Source of the DNA: a virus
Lineage: Duplodnaviria > Heunggongvirae > Uroviricota > Caudoviricetes
Virus record (IMG/VR): IMGVR_UViG_2740892258_000009
DNA length: 4,742 bases
Direction: 5' to 3' (one strand)
Shown here one piece after another: positions 1 to 4,742 of this stretch. Below the pieces are notes generated by a model. That model searched no databases and was not told the origin of the DNA. It worked only from the letters and a program-made list of their open reading frames with translations. Within the stretch, counting starts at the first letter, position 1, and each line of letters begins with the position of its first letter. Both the position numbers and the translations under genes were made by a program.

Positions 1-325
1 ATGGATTGGGTTATGAGCCCGTCGTCCGGTGATGCTCTTCTCTGTTTTGCAAAAAAGGACGGTACCAGCCGGAAGCAAGGGTACAAACTGGTACCGCCAG
101 GACTACACACAGCATAAAGTTGTGGTGCCGGGTGCCTCCCGGTGCCTGGCGAAGGTTGCACACCAGGCGGGTGGGTATCCACAGAAGGTCGACTGTCAGC
201 CTCAACCTTAACCCGCGTGCGCTGAGCCGCATTCACCACAACGCTAAGGATTCTCTCTGGTTGAAAATACTTAGCTGTTATGTGCCTGCTTTTAGCCACA
301 TCAGGCGAGGTGGACCTGGTTATTC

Positions 326-369
326 CCCAACAACAAGGATTCGGTTAATCTGGATATCCCCAACAACAA
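326..369 (+). repeat. Two direct copies of CCCCAACAACAA, 32 bp apart, 40-80 bp upstream of the 408 start
   Basis: CCCCAACAACAA at 326..337 and 358..369, read directly. Function as a regulator-binding site is inference. Confidence 0.5.
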
Positions 370-407
370 TAAGAGTATTCAATGTGATCGCTGAATTAAC
401 GGCAGCA

Positions 408-899
408 ATGACGGCTATTCGTGAAACAGCCCAGATTGCAAAACTAATGAACGAGGCAAAAACTCAAGCTGAAGTAAATGCGGCTATTGGTGAGCTGAAC
501 TCAAAGCTTGCGTCTATTCAGCGCGAATGCGTGTCTCTCGTTGAACTGGTGGGCTCTTATCAAGAAATAAATGCTTCTCTCAAAGCTAAAATTGCAGAAT
601 TCGAAAACTTTGAGGCTCAGACGGAAGGCTATATCCTTAACCAACTTGAGTCGGGTACTTTTGTATACTCGAAGGAGGTAATCGTGAACGGTGGCAGCAT
701 AACCATGCATCTTTGCCCAAAATGTTTTGGACAAAAGATAGTATCGATACTTCAACCATTCCCGGTTAGCGAAGATGAGCTTTTTCATAAAAGCAGGTGC
801 CTCCACTGTGAAAATAAGTTTCTGATGAATAAAAATCCGGATTACGTATCGCCTCCATCCATTGAGGAGTTGTCCAGAAAACTTAACGGCAATCTGTAG
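408..899 (+). CDS. Hypothetical protein, 163 aa: N-terminal coiled-coil-like helical region plus C-terminal C4 zinc ribbon (CPKC-x24-CLHC)
   Basis: The ORF-track frame 120..899 is protein-like only from the ATG at 408 (MTAIRETAQIAKLMNEAKTQAEV...); the 96 codons upstream are Arg/Ser/Pro-rich junk. An alternative GTG start at 384 follows a weak AAGAG. Heptad-like A/L/I/E/K-rich N-terminus. Stop TAG at 897..899 is followed by a hairpin plus T-run terminator. Confidence 0.6.
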   Translation: MTAIRETAQIAKLMNEAKTQAEVNAAIGELNSKLASIQRECVSLVELVGSYQEINASLKAKIAEFENFEAQTEGYILNQLESGTFVYSKEVIVNGGSITMHLCPKCFGQKIVSILQPFPVSEDELFHKSRCLHCENKFLMNKNPDYVSPPSIEELSRKLNGNL

Positions 900-938
900 A
901 TTACTACTGTTGTGGATATCCAGATTGTTAAAGAGCTA

Positions 939-961
939 AGCGTCCTGTAGGGCGCTTTTTT
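939..961 (+). terminator. Rho-independent terminator of the 408..899 gene
   Basis: Stem AGCGTCC (939..945), loop TGTA, stem GGGCGCT (950..956, one G-U pair), then a T-run to 961, starting 40 nt after the stop codon. Confidence 0.6.
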
Positions 962-1069
962 GTTGCTAACGAATCATCCGGTCATTCATACGCCACCGGC
1001 GGCTACTTCGTGGGCGTCCTGCCTGTCCGTGATAGCTTACATTATGTTGCTACTTAAAGTAGCAAAAAT

Positions 1070-1098
1070 CAACAACAAAAAGTAGATATTTGTTGTTG
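1070..1098. repeat. 10-bp perfect inverted repeat CAACAACAAA-N9-TTTGTTGTTG; possible operator or weak AU-rich leftward terminator
   Basis: Arms at 1070..1079 and 1089..1098. On the minus-strand RNA the hairpin is followed by AUUUUUG. It shares the CAACAACAA motif with 326..369. Confidence 0.5.
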
Positions 1099-1117
1099 TC
1101 TATGATTTTTCTATAAT
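1090..1117 (+). promoter_or_regulatory. Candidate sigma70 promoter: -35 TTGTTG (1090..1095), 16-bp spacer, consensus -10 TATAAT (1112..1117)
   Basis: Perfect TATAAT hexamer in an AT-rich tract; the -35 is weak (3/6) and overlaps the right arm of the 1070..1098 inverted repeat. There is no sizeable downstream ORF, so any transcript would be a small or antisense RNA. Confidence 0.3.
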
Positions 1118-1256
1118 TAATTGAAAGTTAAATGTTTTTGCTGATTTACTATGCTGTAAACTGAAAATATCGCACGAAGTTGGAGTAGGTATTGAGCATA
1201 GTGAATTATGAGGAGGGAGTTTTTTATGAGATTAATCAGGGAGAAAGAAGAGTAAA

Positions 1257-1276
1257 GCCCGGTTATGCGGCCGGGC
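1257..1276 (-). terminator. Probable Rho-independent terminator of the ParA-like gene (leftward transcript)
   Basis: GC-only 6-bp stem GCCCGG/CCGGGC with an 8-nt loop, 8 nt past the stop at 1284..1286. On the minus-strand RNA it is followed by the U/C-rich UUUACUCUUCUUU (interrupted U-tract). Confidence 0.5.
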
Positions 1277-1283
1277 ACATGCA

Positions 1284-2360
1284 TTACTTTGTAAGTTCTA
1301 GAACTCGTTGAGCCAGCCCTTTAAATTGTTCGTTAAAGGCGTCTCTGCTTGATTTCATTGTATTTAAGGCATGCCCAAATTGCCCTGAATCGCGAATTTG
1401 CTGATCACTGATGGAGAAAACAGGTGTCGCTAGTTGTTGGCTTATTGCGATTAATGAGTTGAAATCGGAAATATGCGCAAGATCATAGGCTGATAAATCT
1501 CCACTGACTGTTGTTTTGTTAATTGCATGTTGCACTTTATCTCGTGGAATTATGCAGGTAATTTTTTCTAGATTTGGCACTAAGATCGAATCAACAGCAT
1601 CACGGATAGCTGCCATCCATTTTTCGAAAGATTTTACAGGTGCTCCTTTACGCGGCCTGTATCTCTGCTGAATCATACCTAGAAACTGCGGTGCATTTTT
1701 AATTGATTGTGAAGAGTTACCATCATTATTTTCTTTAAATAATGCTAATTCTTTGTGCCAGCGAGGTATATTTTTTGAGAGAGAGCGAATTGCTTGCCAG
1801 CAAAAAAAGTCTGGAGCTACAGGTACGATAAAATAGTCACTTGACATGAGAACTACTTCATTTAAACCTCCAACATTAGGGCTGAGATCATAAAGAATGT
1901 AATCAATATTATTCTTCATGGCGATTAGCTGTAATATTTTTGGCAGGTTCCCTGGTATATTTCTTGTAGCAGGAATACCAGCAGCAATTTTTAGAGAAAC
2001 ACTTATCTGTGAATCTAAGTCCGAAACATCTAAATGTCCGGGAAGAAGCAGAAGGTTTTCATGCAGTGTAGGGTGTAATTTTCCCGTTTCTTTTTCAAGG
2101 TATGCTTCAGGTTGTCCGCCATTAATCAAATATTCTACAATAGGTCCAAGAGTTAAGTTATCTCTGCTAGAATAAAAAGAATCTAAACCCTCATCAATCT
2201 TTTCATAGCCAAGAACCATTCCTGTTAGATTACATTGCGAATCAAGGTCAACCATCAATACTTTCTTGCCTTCATCCGCAAGTGCCCATCCAAGATTGAA
2301 GGTTGTTGTGGTTTTACTTACCCCACCTTTATGATTAAAAAAACAAATTGATTTTGTCAT
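1284..2360 (-). CDS. ParA/MinD/Soj-family deviant Walker-A P-loop ATPase with ~110-aa C-terminal extension, 358 aa; orphan (no ParB in window)
   Basis: Walker A at residues 9-18 (NHKGGVSKTT, the KGGxxK[ST] signature), DLDSQ-type A-prime motif (VLMVDLDSQCN) and a hydrophobic-Asp Walker B (IDYILYDLSP). ATG at 2360 with AAAGGA 9 nt upstream. The gene looks AT-richer than the replication gene by eye (not computed). Confidence 0.85.
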   Translation of the reverse strand: MTKSICFFNHKGGVSKTTTTFNLGWALADEGKKVLMVDLDSQCNLTGMVLGYEKIDEGLDSFYSSRDNLTLGPIVEYLINGGQPEAYLEKETGKLHPTLHENLLLLPGHLDVSDLDSQISVSLKIAAGIPATRNIPGNLPKILQLIAMKNNIDYILYDLSPNVGGLNEVVLMSSDYFIVPVAPDFFCWQAIRSLSKNIPRWHKELALFKENNDGNSSQSIKNAPQFLGMIQQRYRPRKGAPVKSFEKWMAAIRDAVDSILVPNLEKITCIIPRDKVQHAINKTTVSGDLSAYDLAHISDFNSLIAISQQLATPVFSISDQQIRDSGQFGHALNTMKSSRDAFNEQFKGLAQRVLELTK

Positions 2361-2461
2361 ATTTCTCTATCCTTTCGACCCCCAGCATATTGTAATTTAC
2401 GCTGGGTGATTATTTTATATTGTTAATGATAATGTTTAATAAAAATAAGAGAGTAAAACAA

Positions 2462-2474
2462 CTATTAGTAATAG
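2462..2474. promoter_or_regulatory. Operator-like 13-bp palindrome CTATTAgTAATAG in the cI/ParA-like spacer
   Basis: Perfect dyad apart from the centre base; same CTATT-N5-TAG architecture as the two 13-mers between cI and cro. Lies ~100 bp upstream of the ParA-like ATG in a 170-bp AT-rich spacer. Confidence 0.3.
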
Positions 2475-2530
2475 CACTTGCTTGATAAATATTATTTTTT
2501 CACCTTTAGTTCTATAGTCTAAACGAAGAA

Positions 2531-3292
2531 CTAAAGCCGGTTGTATTTAATTGATTCGTGTATCAATGCTTTGCCCATAACATAAAGTTGATCTTGGGAC
2601 TTCTCATCAATGTACCATTTCTCATAGGCTGGATTATCCGAAAGAACGGCGAGTTTGTTGCCTTGCATTTGTAGACGTTTAACGTGGAACGTCTTACCAT
2701 AAACGAAAGAGTAAACACCATCAGTTTGGAAGTTGCGAACAGAAATGTCGACAAACAGTCGATCTCCGGAAACTAGAGTAGGGGACATGCTGTCGCCATT
2801 TACAGTCATAACTTTAATATCATCTTGAGAACGATTACCGAAAAGAGAACGGGCATGCTCTGTTGTGAACTCAATGGCGTAGAGCACATCAACATAGTCT
2901 GAAAGCATATAGGTTCCAGGTCCTGCGCTAACGCTAAGATCCAAAACTTCTATCCTGTATACATCGGGTTTTGTTGGATTGGGGATGCTTGCCATTTCCT
3001 TACATCCTTCTCTCTCGCCAACACCATATTCTAAATATGAAGCTGATACCCCCAGAGCCAATGCAAGTTTATTCATGACAGAGGCACGAGGCTTCGCAGC
3101 GCCGATTGTGTATCGCCGCGCCATTTCATATGTAACGCCCACAAGACTTTTGAGTTGGGTGACAGAAATTCCCTTGTTTGTCATTAGCTCGTTTAGTCTC
3201 TTGGCGAAATCTGGATACTTCTGTTCTTCTACCATAGGTAGAAGGTTACTCGCATCACATACGCTAGTCATTTCTATTTTAAGTAGTTGCAT
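2531..3292 (-). CDS. CI-type phage repressor: N-terminal HTH plus C-terminal S24 (LexA-like) autopeptidase
   Basis: HTH segment GISVTQLKSLVGVTYEMARRYTIG; Ala-Gly cleavage dipeptide in LSVSAGPG (residues 123-124 of the 253-aa frame); catalytic Ser in VNGDSMSPT and Lys in FHVKRL, 36 residues apart. Start is uncertain: ATG at 3292, 3271 or 3235 (253, 246 or 234 aa), and the 13-mer at 3274..3286 favours 3271 or 3235. No SD before any of them, consistent with a leaderless transcript as for lambda cI. Confidence 0.9.
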   Translation of the reverse strand: MQLLKIEMTSVCDASNLLPMVEEQKYPDFAKRLNELMTNKGISVTQLKSLVGVTYEMARRYTIGAAKPRASVMNKLALALGVSASYLEYGVGEREGCKEMASIPNPTKPDVYRIEVLDLSVSAGPGTYMLSDYVDVLYAIEFTTEHARSLFGNRSQDDIKVMTVNGDSMSPTLVSGDRLFVDISVRNFQTDGVYSFVYGKTFHVKRLQMQGNKLAVLSDNPAYEKWYIDEKSQDQLYVMGKALIHESIKYNRL

Positions 3293-3333
3293 TCTGCTAT
3301 TTTAAGTAGCATCATCCCTCTGAATTTCAGAGG
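3274..3333. promoter_or_regulatory. Divergent cI/cro control region: two 13-bp direct repeats CTATTTTAAGTAG (3274..3286, 3297..3309) and a 17-bp palindrome CCTCTGAA-t-TTCAGAGG (3317..3333)
   Basis: The 13-mers are 23 bp apart and each is an imperfect dyad (CTA.TT.AA.TAG). Their reverse complements contain TAAAAT, a -10-like hexamer placed to start a leaderless cI message at the 3271 ATG. The 17-bp palindrome overlaps the cro SD (GGAG at 3331..3334). Confidence 0.5.
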
Positions 3334-3341
3334 AGAAAGGT

Positions 3342-3605
3342 ATGTCATCTCAAAACTACACAGAGAAAGCAGTAAAAGCTGCGGGAAAATCTTTATCTGA
3401 AGTAGCCCGTCACTTTGGTTTTAAGTCCACTCAATCCGTCGCTAATTGGGTAATTAACAATCAAGTCCCGTCAGAACGGGTTTTACAACTTTGTGAGTTG
3501 GGAAACTGGTCCGTGACCCCTCATGAACTGCGTCCTGATATTTACCCCAATCCAAATGATGGATTACCTGAGTGCTATTCAAAAGTTAGCGGTTCAGCTG
3601 CGTAA
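3342..3605 (+). CDS. Cro-like early repressor, YdaS-type Cro/CI-family HTH protein, 87 aa
   Basis: Divergent from cI, GGAG SD 7 nt upstream. Motifs typical of YdaS-like prophage Cro proteins (AVKAAGKSLSEVARHFGFKSTQSVANWV... LRPDIYP). Stop TAA at 3603..3605. Confidence 0.85.
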   Translation: MSSQNYTEKAVKAAGKSLSEVARHFGFKSTQSVANWVINNQVPSERVLQLCELGNWSVTPHELRPDIYPNPNDGLPECYSKVSGSAA

Positions 3606-3633
3606 ACGTAACCACAGAAACGAGGAGTTAACC

Positions 3634-4032
3634 GTGGGTAAGCATCACTGGAAAATAGAAAAACAGCCTGAGTGGTACGTGAAAGCTGTCAGAAAAACTA
3701 TCGCAGCGTTGCCGGGGGGTTACGCTGAAGCTGCTGACTGGCTGGACGTAACAGAGAACGCATTATTTAACCGCCTTCGTGCCGATGGCGATCAGATTTT
3801 CCCGCTGGGATGGGCAATGGTTTTACAGCGTGCTGGTGGTACCTCTCAATTTCGAAGCTGCAGGAGCATGCAGCACTGGTCTACAAAATCTTTTGTGTTT
3901 CAGAAAGTAATGACGCCCGCGAGTGTGCAGCTCCGGGCGTCGTGGCGTCGATTGCTTCTGGTTGTGGAGAAACTAACGCATGAACAGTTTAACAACACAC
4001 TACCGTCGCTCGCAACTGTGTGGAGAAACTAA
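3634..4032 (+). CDS. cII-position early regulator, as present truncated by a frameshifting 56-bp tandem duplication (probable pseudogene or altered C-terminus)
   Basis: GTG at 3634 follows a strong SD GAGGAG (3622..3627, 6-nt spacer), in the frame of track ORF 3523..4032. ATGs at 3523 and 3556/3559 overlap cro and lack an SD. The frame stops at TAA 4030..4032 inside copy 2 of the duplication. Assignment to a CII/YdaT-like family rests on gene position plus a loose resemblance and is unverified. Confidence 0.55.
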   Translation: MGKHHWKIEKQPEWYVKAVRKTIAALPGGYAEAADWLDVTENALFNRLRADGDQIFPLGWAMVLQRAGGTSQFRSCRSMQHWSTKSFVFQKVMTPASVQLRASWRRLLLVVEKLTHEQFNNTLPSLATVWRN

Positions 4033-4074
4033 CGCATGAACAGTTTAACAACACACTACCGTCGCTCGCAACTG
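3963..4074 (+). repeat. Perfect 56-bp direct tandem duplication (3963..4018 = 4019..4074)
   Basis: Base-by-base identity of TGTGGAGAAACTAACGCATGAACAGTTTAACAACACACTACCGTCGCTCGCAACTG in two adjacent copies; flanking bases differ. 56 is not a multiple of 3. Confidence 0.95.
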
Positions 4075-4374
4075 ATTGCGCTTCCTGTACCGGGTGGAAA
4101 AGCGAAGGTGGAGTATTGCTATGCAGTAAATGTACCAGGTGACAGGGAAATTGTAACCCACAGCTTTGCTGAGTGGGCTGTGGGTGATTTCAACCGGCAG
4201 AAGGAGACAGTCCTTTGCGACAAGTTAACCGCTGGTTCAAAGATCACTACGGAGTGCCCGTCAGAGTCATTCGTTGGGAACCGGAAACACAACGTGTTAT
4301 CTACCTCCGCGAAGGCTATGAGCATGAGTGCTTCAGCCCGCTCGAACAGTTTCGTCGTAAATTCAGGGAAATAG
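4036..4374 (+). CDS. Hypothetical protein, 112 aa (track ORF); may be an artefact of the frameshift
   Basis: ATG lies inside copy 2 of the duplication with only a distant GGAG (10-nt spacer). Product is Ser-rich with no motif I recognise. Mutually exclusive with the 4215..4394 model. Confidence 0.3.
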
Positions 4375-4394
4375 AGGTCGGTCATGAGCACTAA
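4215..4394 (+). CDS. Alternative small ORF, 59 aa, TTG start; hypothetical
   Basis: Not in the ORF track. AAGGAG at 4201..4206, 8-nt spacer, TTG at 4215. Product (L/M)[58 protein letters not shown] uses preferred CGT/CGC Arg codons; stop TAA 4392..4394 overlaps the replication gene start by 11 nt. Confidence 0.3.
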
Positions 4395-4742
4395 ATTAAC
4401 CGGCTATGTATGGGATGGTTGCGCTGCATCAGGCATGAAATTATCCAGCGTGGCAATTATGGCCCGCCTGGCTGATTTCAGTAATGACGAAGGTGTGTGC
4501 TGGCCATCAATTGAAACCATTGCCCGCCAGATTGGCGCGGGGATGAGTACCGTCAGAACGGCTATCGCACGGCTGGAAGCAGAAGGCTGGTTAACGCGTA
4601 AGGCGCGTCGCCAGGGTAACCGCAATGCGTCGAATGTTTATCAGCTTAACGTTGCGAAGCTTCAGGCAGCGGCATTTTCTCAACTGTCAGATTCTGACCC
4701 GTCAAAATCTGACGCATCAAAATCTGACGCATCAAAATCTGA
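4384..4742 (+). CDS. Phage replication initiation protein (lambda O-like), N-terminal HTH DNA-binding domain; partial, runs past the window end
   Basis: ATG at 4384 with AGAGG SD 6-7 nt upstream; open to the window edge. [70 protein letters not shown] matches the N-terminal HTH pattern of phage O-like initiators. Position after cro and the cII-position gene matches lambdoid order. Confidence 0.8.
   Translation, partial: MSTKLTGYVWDGCAASGMKLSSVAIMARLADFSNDEGVCWPSIETIARQIGAGMSTVRTAIARLEAEGWLTRKARRQGNRNASNVYQLNVAKLQAAAFSQLSDSDPSKSDASKSDASKS
4687..4742 (+). repeat. 15-bp tandem repeats TCAAAATCTGACGCA inside the replication gene; candidate origin iterons
   Basis: One degenerate copy (4687..4701, 11/15 matches), two perfect copies (4702..4716, 4717..4731) and a truncated copy to the window edge. 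In frame, encoding SDSDP-SKSDA-SKSDA-SKSD. The repeat is certain; the iteron role is inference. Confidence 0.8.

Follow-up and report, generated by a model that had tools for sequence, protein, structure and literature searches.

In the region between the cII-like gene and the replication gene of a tailed-phage record of IMG/VR (IMGVR_UViG_2740892258_000009, Caudoviricetes; the whole stretch analysed, 4,742 nucleotides (nt) long, is called the window below), two overlapping open reading frames (ORFs) occupy positions 4036 to 4394. One is ymfM, and the other, which opens with a TTG codon, encodes a small protein of the DUF4222 family. Comparison with relatives suggests that they form a conserved out-of-frame (overprinted) gene pair, in which ymfM, consisting of a domain and an overprinted tail, and the DUF4222 gene would both be genuine; we give this reading a probability of about 0.7. 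The coding signature of each frame, the maintenance of the open frames and the geometry of the genes are direct observations. The window is the immunity and early-right (replication) region of an e14/SfII-like lambdoid prophage of E. coli. Neither ymfM nor DUF4222 is new by itself, and pairs arranged in this way are a classic feature of phages (Rz/Rz1). Within the literature searched, the dual-coding relation of the two genes and its bearing on ymfM genetics appear to be undescribed: a literature search returned no paper on DUF4222 function and none mentioning the overlap.

The two ORFs lie on the same strand in different frames and have 160 nt in common (4215–4374). That of DUF4222 extends 20 nt beyond the ymfM stop and, ending at 4394, overlaps the replication gene (ATG at 4384) by 11 nt, as a preliminary description of this DNA had stated; its stop lies 8 nt past that ATG. 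The same description had noted a well-placed AAGGAG, and this Shine-Dalgarno (SD) element is indeed found at 4201–4206, 8 nt 5' of the TTG at 4215. It had also called the stretch open in three frames, which holds if the antisense frame is counted, the third long ORF being antisense (4119–4391, 90 residues), and does not hold on the + strand, where two frames are open (that of ymfM throughout, that of DUF4222 from 4188) and the third has 10 stops. Its warning that a simple ORF call is unreliable here was well founded. ymfM and the replication gene are in one frame in 35/35 loci, and in 29 of these the ymfM stop is placed 12 nt 5' of the replication gene ATG. At the other end, the start codon of ymfM, its SD element and the ATGA junction with ymfL are conserved in relatives. 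Since the start of the replication gene is where both ORFs terminate, it can be proposed that the three genes are probably translationally coupled.

The product of the longer ORF is identical to the E. coli K-12 "cell division inhibitor YmfM" (b1148) at 108 of 112 positions (96%), without gaps, and the four differing residues all fall in the overprinted tail. It matches phrog_1170 at 1e-69 and has no Pfam or NCBIfam family match. The synteny also agrees: the gene lies in an e14-like immunity region, downstream of ymfL (cII-like, disrupted in the window) and upstream of the replication gene. Among 54 distinct e14-type sequences, variants in 4036–4214 comprise 17 synonymous, 7 non-synonymous and 0 stop-creating changes in the ymfM frame; the corresponding figures are 3, 20 and 1 in the alternative +1 frame and 5, 14 and 5 in the +2 frame. 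A divergent set of 31 genome loci, chosen by DUF4222 homology alone and drawn from a few metagenome bins and from 10 or more named genera, gives mean pairwise differences of 0.160/0.126/0.274 at codon positions 1/2/3 of the ymfM frame in the same 5' part. Both the variant counts and the codon-position pattern thus identify the 5' 180 nt of ymfM, by comparative criteria, as genuine coding sequence. At least four sequence classes, with a common motif pattern, can be distinguished for the N-terminal domain. In Providencia/Proteus-type phages it is a separate gene of 58–70 codons, with its stop 8 nt into DUF4222; pairwise E-values between the stand-alone form and the e14-lineage domains are 6e-8 and 8e-12.

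The evidence for the DUF4222 gene is of several kinds. Its 59-residue product matches Pfam PF13973 with 67.3 bits (cut-off 27; E 8.6e-19), residues 2–53 aligning to profile positions 3–52 of 53. The 139 homologues (64–100% identity) are spread across Enterobacterales, in genera including Escherichia, Salmonella, Klebsiella, Enterobacter, Citrobacter and Kosakonia, and have the same start residue. All non-e14 orthologues (64–88% identity) carry ATG at the position of the window's TTG, and a purine-rich GGAG-like element is found at the same place as the SD in most orthologous loci. In 4215–4374, variants of the e14-type sequences are 14 synonymous, 1 non-synonymous and 0 stop-creating in the DUF4222 frame, and the divergent loci differ by 0.168/0.102/0.480 at codon positions 1/2/3. 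From the 14:1 ratio and the third-position divergence, DUF4222 is to be regarded as a real gene, clearly under purifying selection. The scan of viral contigs (A3 alignment) gave near-identical e14-type loci only, and served for the polymorphism analysis, not for diversity; the 79 IMG/VR loci hold 28 distinct YmfM proteins versus 2 distinct DUF4222 proteins. A scan with P0225 gave no matches. The AlphaFold2 model of the protein (mean predicted local distance difference test (pLDDT) score 84) predicts a 59-residue beta-barrel of SH3/Tudor-like fold. The preference for the TTG gene model in the preliminary description is therefore justified by the Pfam match, the common start and the 14:1 ratio. 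Its argument from preferred arginine codons is borne out for six of the nine (CGT/CGC) and fails for the other three, which are rare (CGA, AGA, AGG).

The question is then that of the status of the ymfM tail, codons 61–112. The preliminary description had proposed that frame-specific substitution patterns would favour one ORF and reject the other. The outcome is split, with no single winner: 4036–4214 evolves as coding sequence in the ymfM frame and 4215–4374 in that of DUF4222. Correspondingly, codons 1–60 of ymfM show coding-type constraint, and codons 61–112 show a maintained open frame and a composition bias, without sequence conservation. The Ser-richness that had been remarked upon (14 Ser in 112 residues) is limited to the part overlapping the DUF4222 ORF, with 11 Ser in residues 61–112 (21%) and 3 in residues 1–60 (5%), and this part does look like an out-of-frame read. 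The earlier conclusion that the two ORFs could not both be real in full is not borne out by the comparison. The ymfM frame is open across DUF4222 in 31/31 genome loci and in 4/4 phage loci (35/35), with an ATG or GTG at −167 to −182, a stop at +157 to +166 and products of 108–116 residues, and stop-prone synonymous codons are wholly avoided. The +2 frame of DUF4222 closes within 5–23 nt in most loci.

The openness was compared with a null model in which each DUF4222 sequence is synonymously recoded and the share of trials with an open +1 frame is scored. The probability of an open frame per locus is 0.054 with K-12 codon usage and 0.080 with the usage of the adjacent replication genes; it is 0.32 with DUF4222's own, already biased, usage. 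The bias itself is very specific. Wherever a Val, Leu or Ile codon precedes A or G, it has the form NNT or NNC (153 of 153), T and C both occurring, and the stop-prone alternatives are never found (0/153). GTG, CTG and ATA are nevertheless used in safe contexts of the same DUF4222 genes, and the neighbouring replication genes use them freely in the same contexts. With representatives below 90% nt identity, such codons occupy 0/122 risky versus 36/111 safe contexts (p = 7e-14); below 85%, 0/92 versus 27/84; and with the 11 representatives below 80%, 0/51 versus 14/50 (p = 1.8e-5), these p-values being inexact owing to the phylogenetic relatedness of the loci. The avoidance of CTG and GTG extends to places where the result in the ymfM frame would be Trp, not a stop. 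The ymfM stop itself is always formed by a rare xTA codon of DUF4222. Finally, real tails differ from recoded open tails in composition, with more Ser/Thr (0.33 versus 0.26; higher in 29/31 loci) and fewer hydrophobic residues (0.20 versus 0.27; lower in 31/31 loci). The Providencia-type lineage, in which the N-domain gene ends at the start of DUF4222, provides a control. There, GTG/GTA are used in 15/103 cases and CTG in 11/55, and +1-frame stops occur at +1, +25, +82 and +106; the stop-avoiding constraint is relaxed in this lineage.

Several observations weigh against a functional tail, in addition to the relatedness of the loci. In 4215–4374 the ymfM frame has 1 synonymous, 14 non-synonymous and 0 stop-creating variants among the e14-type sequences; the protein sequence of the tail is thus not conserved, and no specific function of it is indicated. 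The N-domain exists tail-free in Providencia-type phages, so that the tail is in principle dispensable. In YeP1, in Hafnia yong2 and in a group of Providencia/Proteus-type phages (L127–L138), the +1 frame of DUF4222 is open although no ORF enters it, and part of the openness could therefore come from the codon and amino-acid bias of DUF4222. The conserved ymfM stop sits in the SD of the replication gene (TAGAGG or TAAAGG), which alone could explain its position. The structural model of YmfM is of low confidence (pLDDT 49), residues 67–112 having no structure in the AlphaFold2 prediction.

These points can be assembled into the most serious competitor of the overprinted pair, in which the functional units would be DUF4222 and a short ymfM, and the tail would be unselected read-on or translated junk, the composition of DUF4222 rarely making +1 stops. 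The free drift of the tail, its predicted disorder, the stand-alone N-domain genes, the frames open without an incoming ORF and the value of 0.32 under DUF4222's own usage are all in keeping with it. However, even under that biased usage about 10 of the 31 genome loci would be expected to be open, against the 35/35 found. Neither the total absence of stop-prone codons from risky contexts, nor the shunning of CTG and GTG where Trp would result, nor the departure of tail composition from the recoding null is accounted for, and the constraint is visibly relaxed precisely where ymfM-N ends early. We consider this alternative unlikely, though it is the one to be taken most seriously.

According to a second alternative, which is the view taken by the Prokaryotic Genome Annotation Pipeline (PGAP), only the TTG ORF would be real, 4036–4214 being an untranslated spacer and the ymfM annotation an artefact. 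In the nearest genome, avian pathogenic E. coli (APEC) O18, PGAP annotates WP_001250269.1 ("DUF4222 domain-containing protein"), a model equal in length to the TTG ORF that likewise overlaps the replication gene by 11 nt, and gives no feature for 4036–4214, the 5' half of ymfM. The lack of a Pfam or NCBIfam family for YmfM and its poor structural model go in the same direction. Against this stand the 17:7 ratio in the ymfM frame, where the other frames would take stops, the coding-type codon-position pattern, the conserved start codon, SD and ATGA junction, and the homologous N-domains in at least four classes and as separate genes in distant phages. The comparison contradicts this alternative, which is very improbable.

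No more credible, and likewise contradicted by the comparison, is the opposite view, that of the K-12, SfII and PHROG annotations, in which only the 112-residue ymfM is real and the TTG ORF arose by chance. ymfM is annotated in K-12, SfII and phage 720R4, in each case without a DUF4222 gene; expressing the ymfM ORF causes filamentation (see below), and TTG is a weak start codon. In K-12 MG1655, a DUF4222 ORF identical at 59/59 residues lies inside ymfM b1148 without a RefSeq feature (NC_000913.3, ~1204001–1204180; locus L004, 3502–3681). This view is opposed by the strong Pfam match, the ATG of the orthologues, the 14:1 ratio with the third codon position most variable in the DUF4222 frame, the confident fold prediction, and the presence of distant DUF4222 family members in phages without an overlapping ymfM. 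An equally improbable alternative, a programmed −1 frameshift that joins the YmfM N-domain to DUF4222 as halves of one gene, would fit the direction of the shift from one frame to the other and the fused database proteins P0184 (119 residues, 14 members), P0178 and P0085, but the stretch from the last frame-0 stop (4185–4187) to 4215 contains no slippery heptamer of the form X XXY YYZ, a start codon and SD proper to DUF4222 are conserved in every lineage, the fused entries differ by single indels at scattered places and are mostly single short contigs, and the two genes stand in yet another frame relation in Providencia-type phages.

The antisense ORF was also considered as a gene and rejected. 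It closes only via rare TTA, CTA or TCA codons in DUF4222, in relatives the open stretch may be as short as 40 or as long as 157 codons, with interruptions in 3/35 loci, and the synonymous sites of DUF4222 are its first codon positions. In the record of Klebsiella phage ST101-KPC2phi6.3 (L120, 665–952, − strand), the antisense ORF running across DUF4222 is annotated in place of either sense gene, which makes a third, mutually exclusive annotation.

Two groups of relatives deserve mention for themselves. In Providencia/Proteus-type phages (IMG/VR loci L127–L138 and L146, ~795–975), the N-domain gene ends at the DUF4222 start, yet the +1 frame is open to +172 in ~12 distinct sequences; the predicted product is a hydrophobic peptide (MKMPIISIAFIWISAVFVFVSYV...), perhaps a further small membrane protein encoded by overlap, perhaps the result of chance. 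In phage mEp460 (L123, 543–1556) and Salmonella phage 118970_sal3 (L126, 549–1556), the ymfM-frame ORF continues without a stop as far as the downstream gene, and the records give one long "antirepressor/transcriptional regulator" CDS with a YmfM-like N-terminus, crossing the DUF4222-like gene in the +1 frame. This long CDS is probably an over-extended gene call.

If the overprinted-pair reading is adopted, the pair would belong to the early right operon of e14/SfII-like lambdoid prophages, in the order cro, ymfL, ymfM with DUF4222, replication gene. ymfM would encode a conserved N-terminal domain of ~58 residues followed by a Ser/Thr-rich tail of ~52 residues read in the +1 frame of DUF4222. 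The sequence of this tail would drift freely, its reading frame and hydrophilic composition being maintained, and the tail would be translated and useful. DUF4222 would be initiated internally, within ymfM, from its own AAGGAG and TTG. The whole would make a tightly packed, probably coupled chain from ymfL to ymfM to the replication gene, with DUF4222 entered from within.

Out-of-frame embedded or overlapping genes are well known in phages, as with Rz/Rz1 in lambda and with B-in-A and E-in-D in phiX174. As in these pairs, the ymfM and DUF4222 frames are on the same strand and kept in relatives, the inner ORF is equipped with its own SD and start codon, and the newer frame has an unusual composition and little conservation. 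Unlike in these pairs, the overlap is partial and the overprinted part is a C-terminal tail alone. The fit of the 59-residue product to the whole DUF4222 profile places this Pfam family inside ymfM in the e14 lineage. The pair maps in the rightward early operon, after a cII-like activator and before the replication initiator, as does the cII-O interval of lambda, in which the oop antisense RNA lies and, to our knowledge, no protein genes are found. The interval of the window differs in having protein genes, without a convincing antisense promoter/terminator pair: a search for an oop-like antisense RNA or other RNA element between the cII-like and replication genes gave no Rfam hit, and promoter- or terminator-like matches were at chance level.

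The finding bears on the published function of ymfM. Expression of the ymfM "open reading frame" from pBAD24 was shown to produce filaments without Z-rings, independently of SulA, SlmA and MinC, and in a sulA background there was less SOS filamentation when ymfM was deleted (Ansari et al., bioRxiv 10.1101/2020.11.19.390815). In earlier work, library clones contained ymfL(142-185)-ymfM-ymfN(1-92), and a screen in UTI89 pointed to the same region. ymfM is presented as the long-sought sfiC division inhibitor, and it is now a tool for making filamentous cells. The K-12 e14 gene (b1148, SfiC) resembles that of the window in length, in its place between ymfL and the replication gene and in the ATGA junction seen in relatives; it differs from the window's in that here ymfL is broken by a 208-base-pair (bp) deletion and the junction is duplicated (56 bp). 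The embedded DUF4222 frame was not considered in the K-12 work (Ansari et al.), and the ymfM literature found reports no frame-specific mutant or protein detection. All published ymfM constructs include the DUF4222 SD and start, and the ORF clone has 53 of the 59 DUF4222 codons, that is, the whole Pfam domain. The filamentation phenotype therefore belongs to a DNA segment carrying both frames, not to one identified product. Constructs and deletion alike change both genes at once, which makes the genetics of ymfM ambiguous. That the SOS-inducible SfiC filamentation ascribed to the 112-residue YmfM is actually caused by, or requires, the embedded DUF4222, or requires the overprinted tail, is conceivable but doubtful. 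Kil (lambda, Rac), DicB and SulA are small prophage- or SOS-linked Z-ring inhibitors that are toxic when overexpressed (see bioRxiv 10.1101/2020.11.19.390815); YmfM is like them in these respects, and no sequence similarity to them was detected.

Features of the window and the basis on which they were assigned
Feature	Position	Strand	Basis or remark
ParA-like ATPase (AAA_31), 358 residues	1284–2360	−	
CI-type S24 repressor	2531–3292	−	
Cro/YdaS-like gene	3342–3605	+	
Disrupted ymfL, cII-like, Phage_CP76/YmfL family	3634 (GTG start)–4032	+	Alignment with intact relatives
Perfect 56-bp tandem duplication	3963–4018 and 4019–4074		Copies the ymfL-stop/ymfM-start junction
19-codon mini-ORF from first duplication copy	3980–4039	+	Translation
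GGAG SD-like element of ymfM	4022–4025	+	10 nt 5' of ATG 4036; sequence reading
ymfM, 112 residues, ATG start, TAG stop 4372–4374	4036–4374	+	K-12 YmfM identity, phrog_1170 match
ymfM 5' part outside overlap, conserved N-terminal domain (~58 residues)	4036–4214	+	Frame-specific variants
Antisense ORF, 90 residues, judged a by-product	4119–4391	−	
AAGGAG SD element of DUF4222 gene	4201–4206	+	8-nt spacer to TTG
DUF4222 gene, 59 residues, TTG start, TAA stop 4392–4394	4215–4394	+	Pfam PF13973 match
Dual-coding overlap, 160 nt, ymfM codons 61–112 in +1 frame of DUF4222	4215–4374	+	
Replication initiator gene, 5' part, O-like, HTH_36; SD AGAGG 4373–4377	4384–4742	+	Pfam, PHROG

The gene map of the window can be corrected on these grounds: ymfM, DUF4222 and the beginning of the replication gene are intact, and ymfL is to be listed as a pseudogene. 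Positions 1–3838 are identical to APEC O18; beyond 3838 the window differs from that genome by a 208-bp deletion, a 56-bp insertion and 3 single-nucleotide polymorphisms. The deletion (junction ~3838–3841, seen against APEC O18, SfII and K-12) shifts the frame of ymfL after ~69 native codons, so that ymfL is a pseudogene in this prophage. The intact YmfL of relatives matches PF06892 (1.2e-13) and NF041471 (2.6e-50). A GGTACC site arises by chance at the deletion junction.

The 56-bp duplication has copies 100% identical to each other (Tandem Repeats Finder score 224), and its unit spans the junction where the ymfL stop overlaps the ymfM start in intact relatives; the TGA of the mini-ORF again overlaps the ymfM ATG at 4036 to give ATGA. 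The ymfM ORF does start within the duplicated segment, as previously described, its ATG being in the second copy. In relatives that lack the duplication, the ATG and the 17 nt 5' of it are unchanged, so that a start inside the repeat is no argument against the ORF. The duplication was not found by alignment in APEC O18, SfII or phage 720R4, and together with the deletion it is missing from all 169 loci checked. When the junctions were searched in 5,426 complete E. coli genomes, the best listed matches (5 tied rows) were all two-piece and none had the same junctions, which does not prove absence. Either the duplication is a mutation private to this prophage and very recent, or it was introduced by assembly. 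The start context of ymfM, GTGGAGAAACTAACGCATGA (20 nt, window 4019–4039), is conserved across divergent loci. It is nearly invariant at the DNA level although the flanking coding sequences fall in different classes (loci L005–L035), and it may be a module-junction or recombination linker in these mosaic phages.

The replication gene runs off the window end (4742), and its product matches Pfam HTH_36 (8e-12) and phrog_11896/391. It contains 15-bp tandem repeats (TCAAAATCTGACGCA, 3.3 copies) at 4687–4742, coding for SKSDA repeats, the array being cut by the window end; they resemble the origin iterons inside O-like genes. In the left part of the window, a gene for a 171-residue coiled-coil protein with C-terminal CxxC...CxxC motifs (384–899, + strand) and the ParA/AAA_31 gene are accessory (moron-like) genes between the left window end and the repressor gene. 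A match to the STnc100 small RNA of Rfam covers the full model length at 49–272 (− strand) and stays below threshold (40.3 bits versus a gathering score of 47; E 2e-6).

Returning to the pair itself, the annotations are at present split, curated K-12 and phage records giving ymfM alone and PGAP giving DUF4222 alone. Each of these is half of the picture supported by comparison, and neither is simply wrong. The 160-nt overlap, with its many natural variants and an overlap-free sister lineage, offers a testable model for the upkeep of an overprinted C-terminal extension. Should the SfiC filamentation prove to depend on the embedded DUF4222 protein or on the overprinted tail, K-12 would hold a conserved functional gene without a b-number within ymfM, and the e14 lineage would offer a clear example from nature of a dual-coding region maintained by selection.

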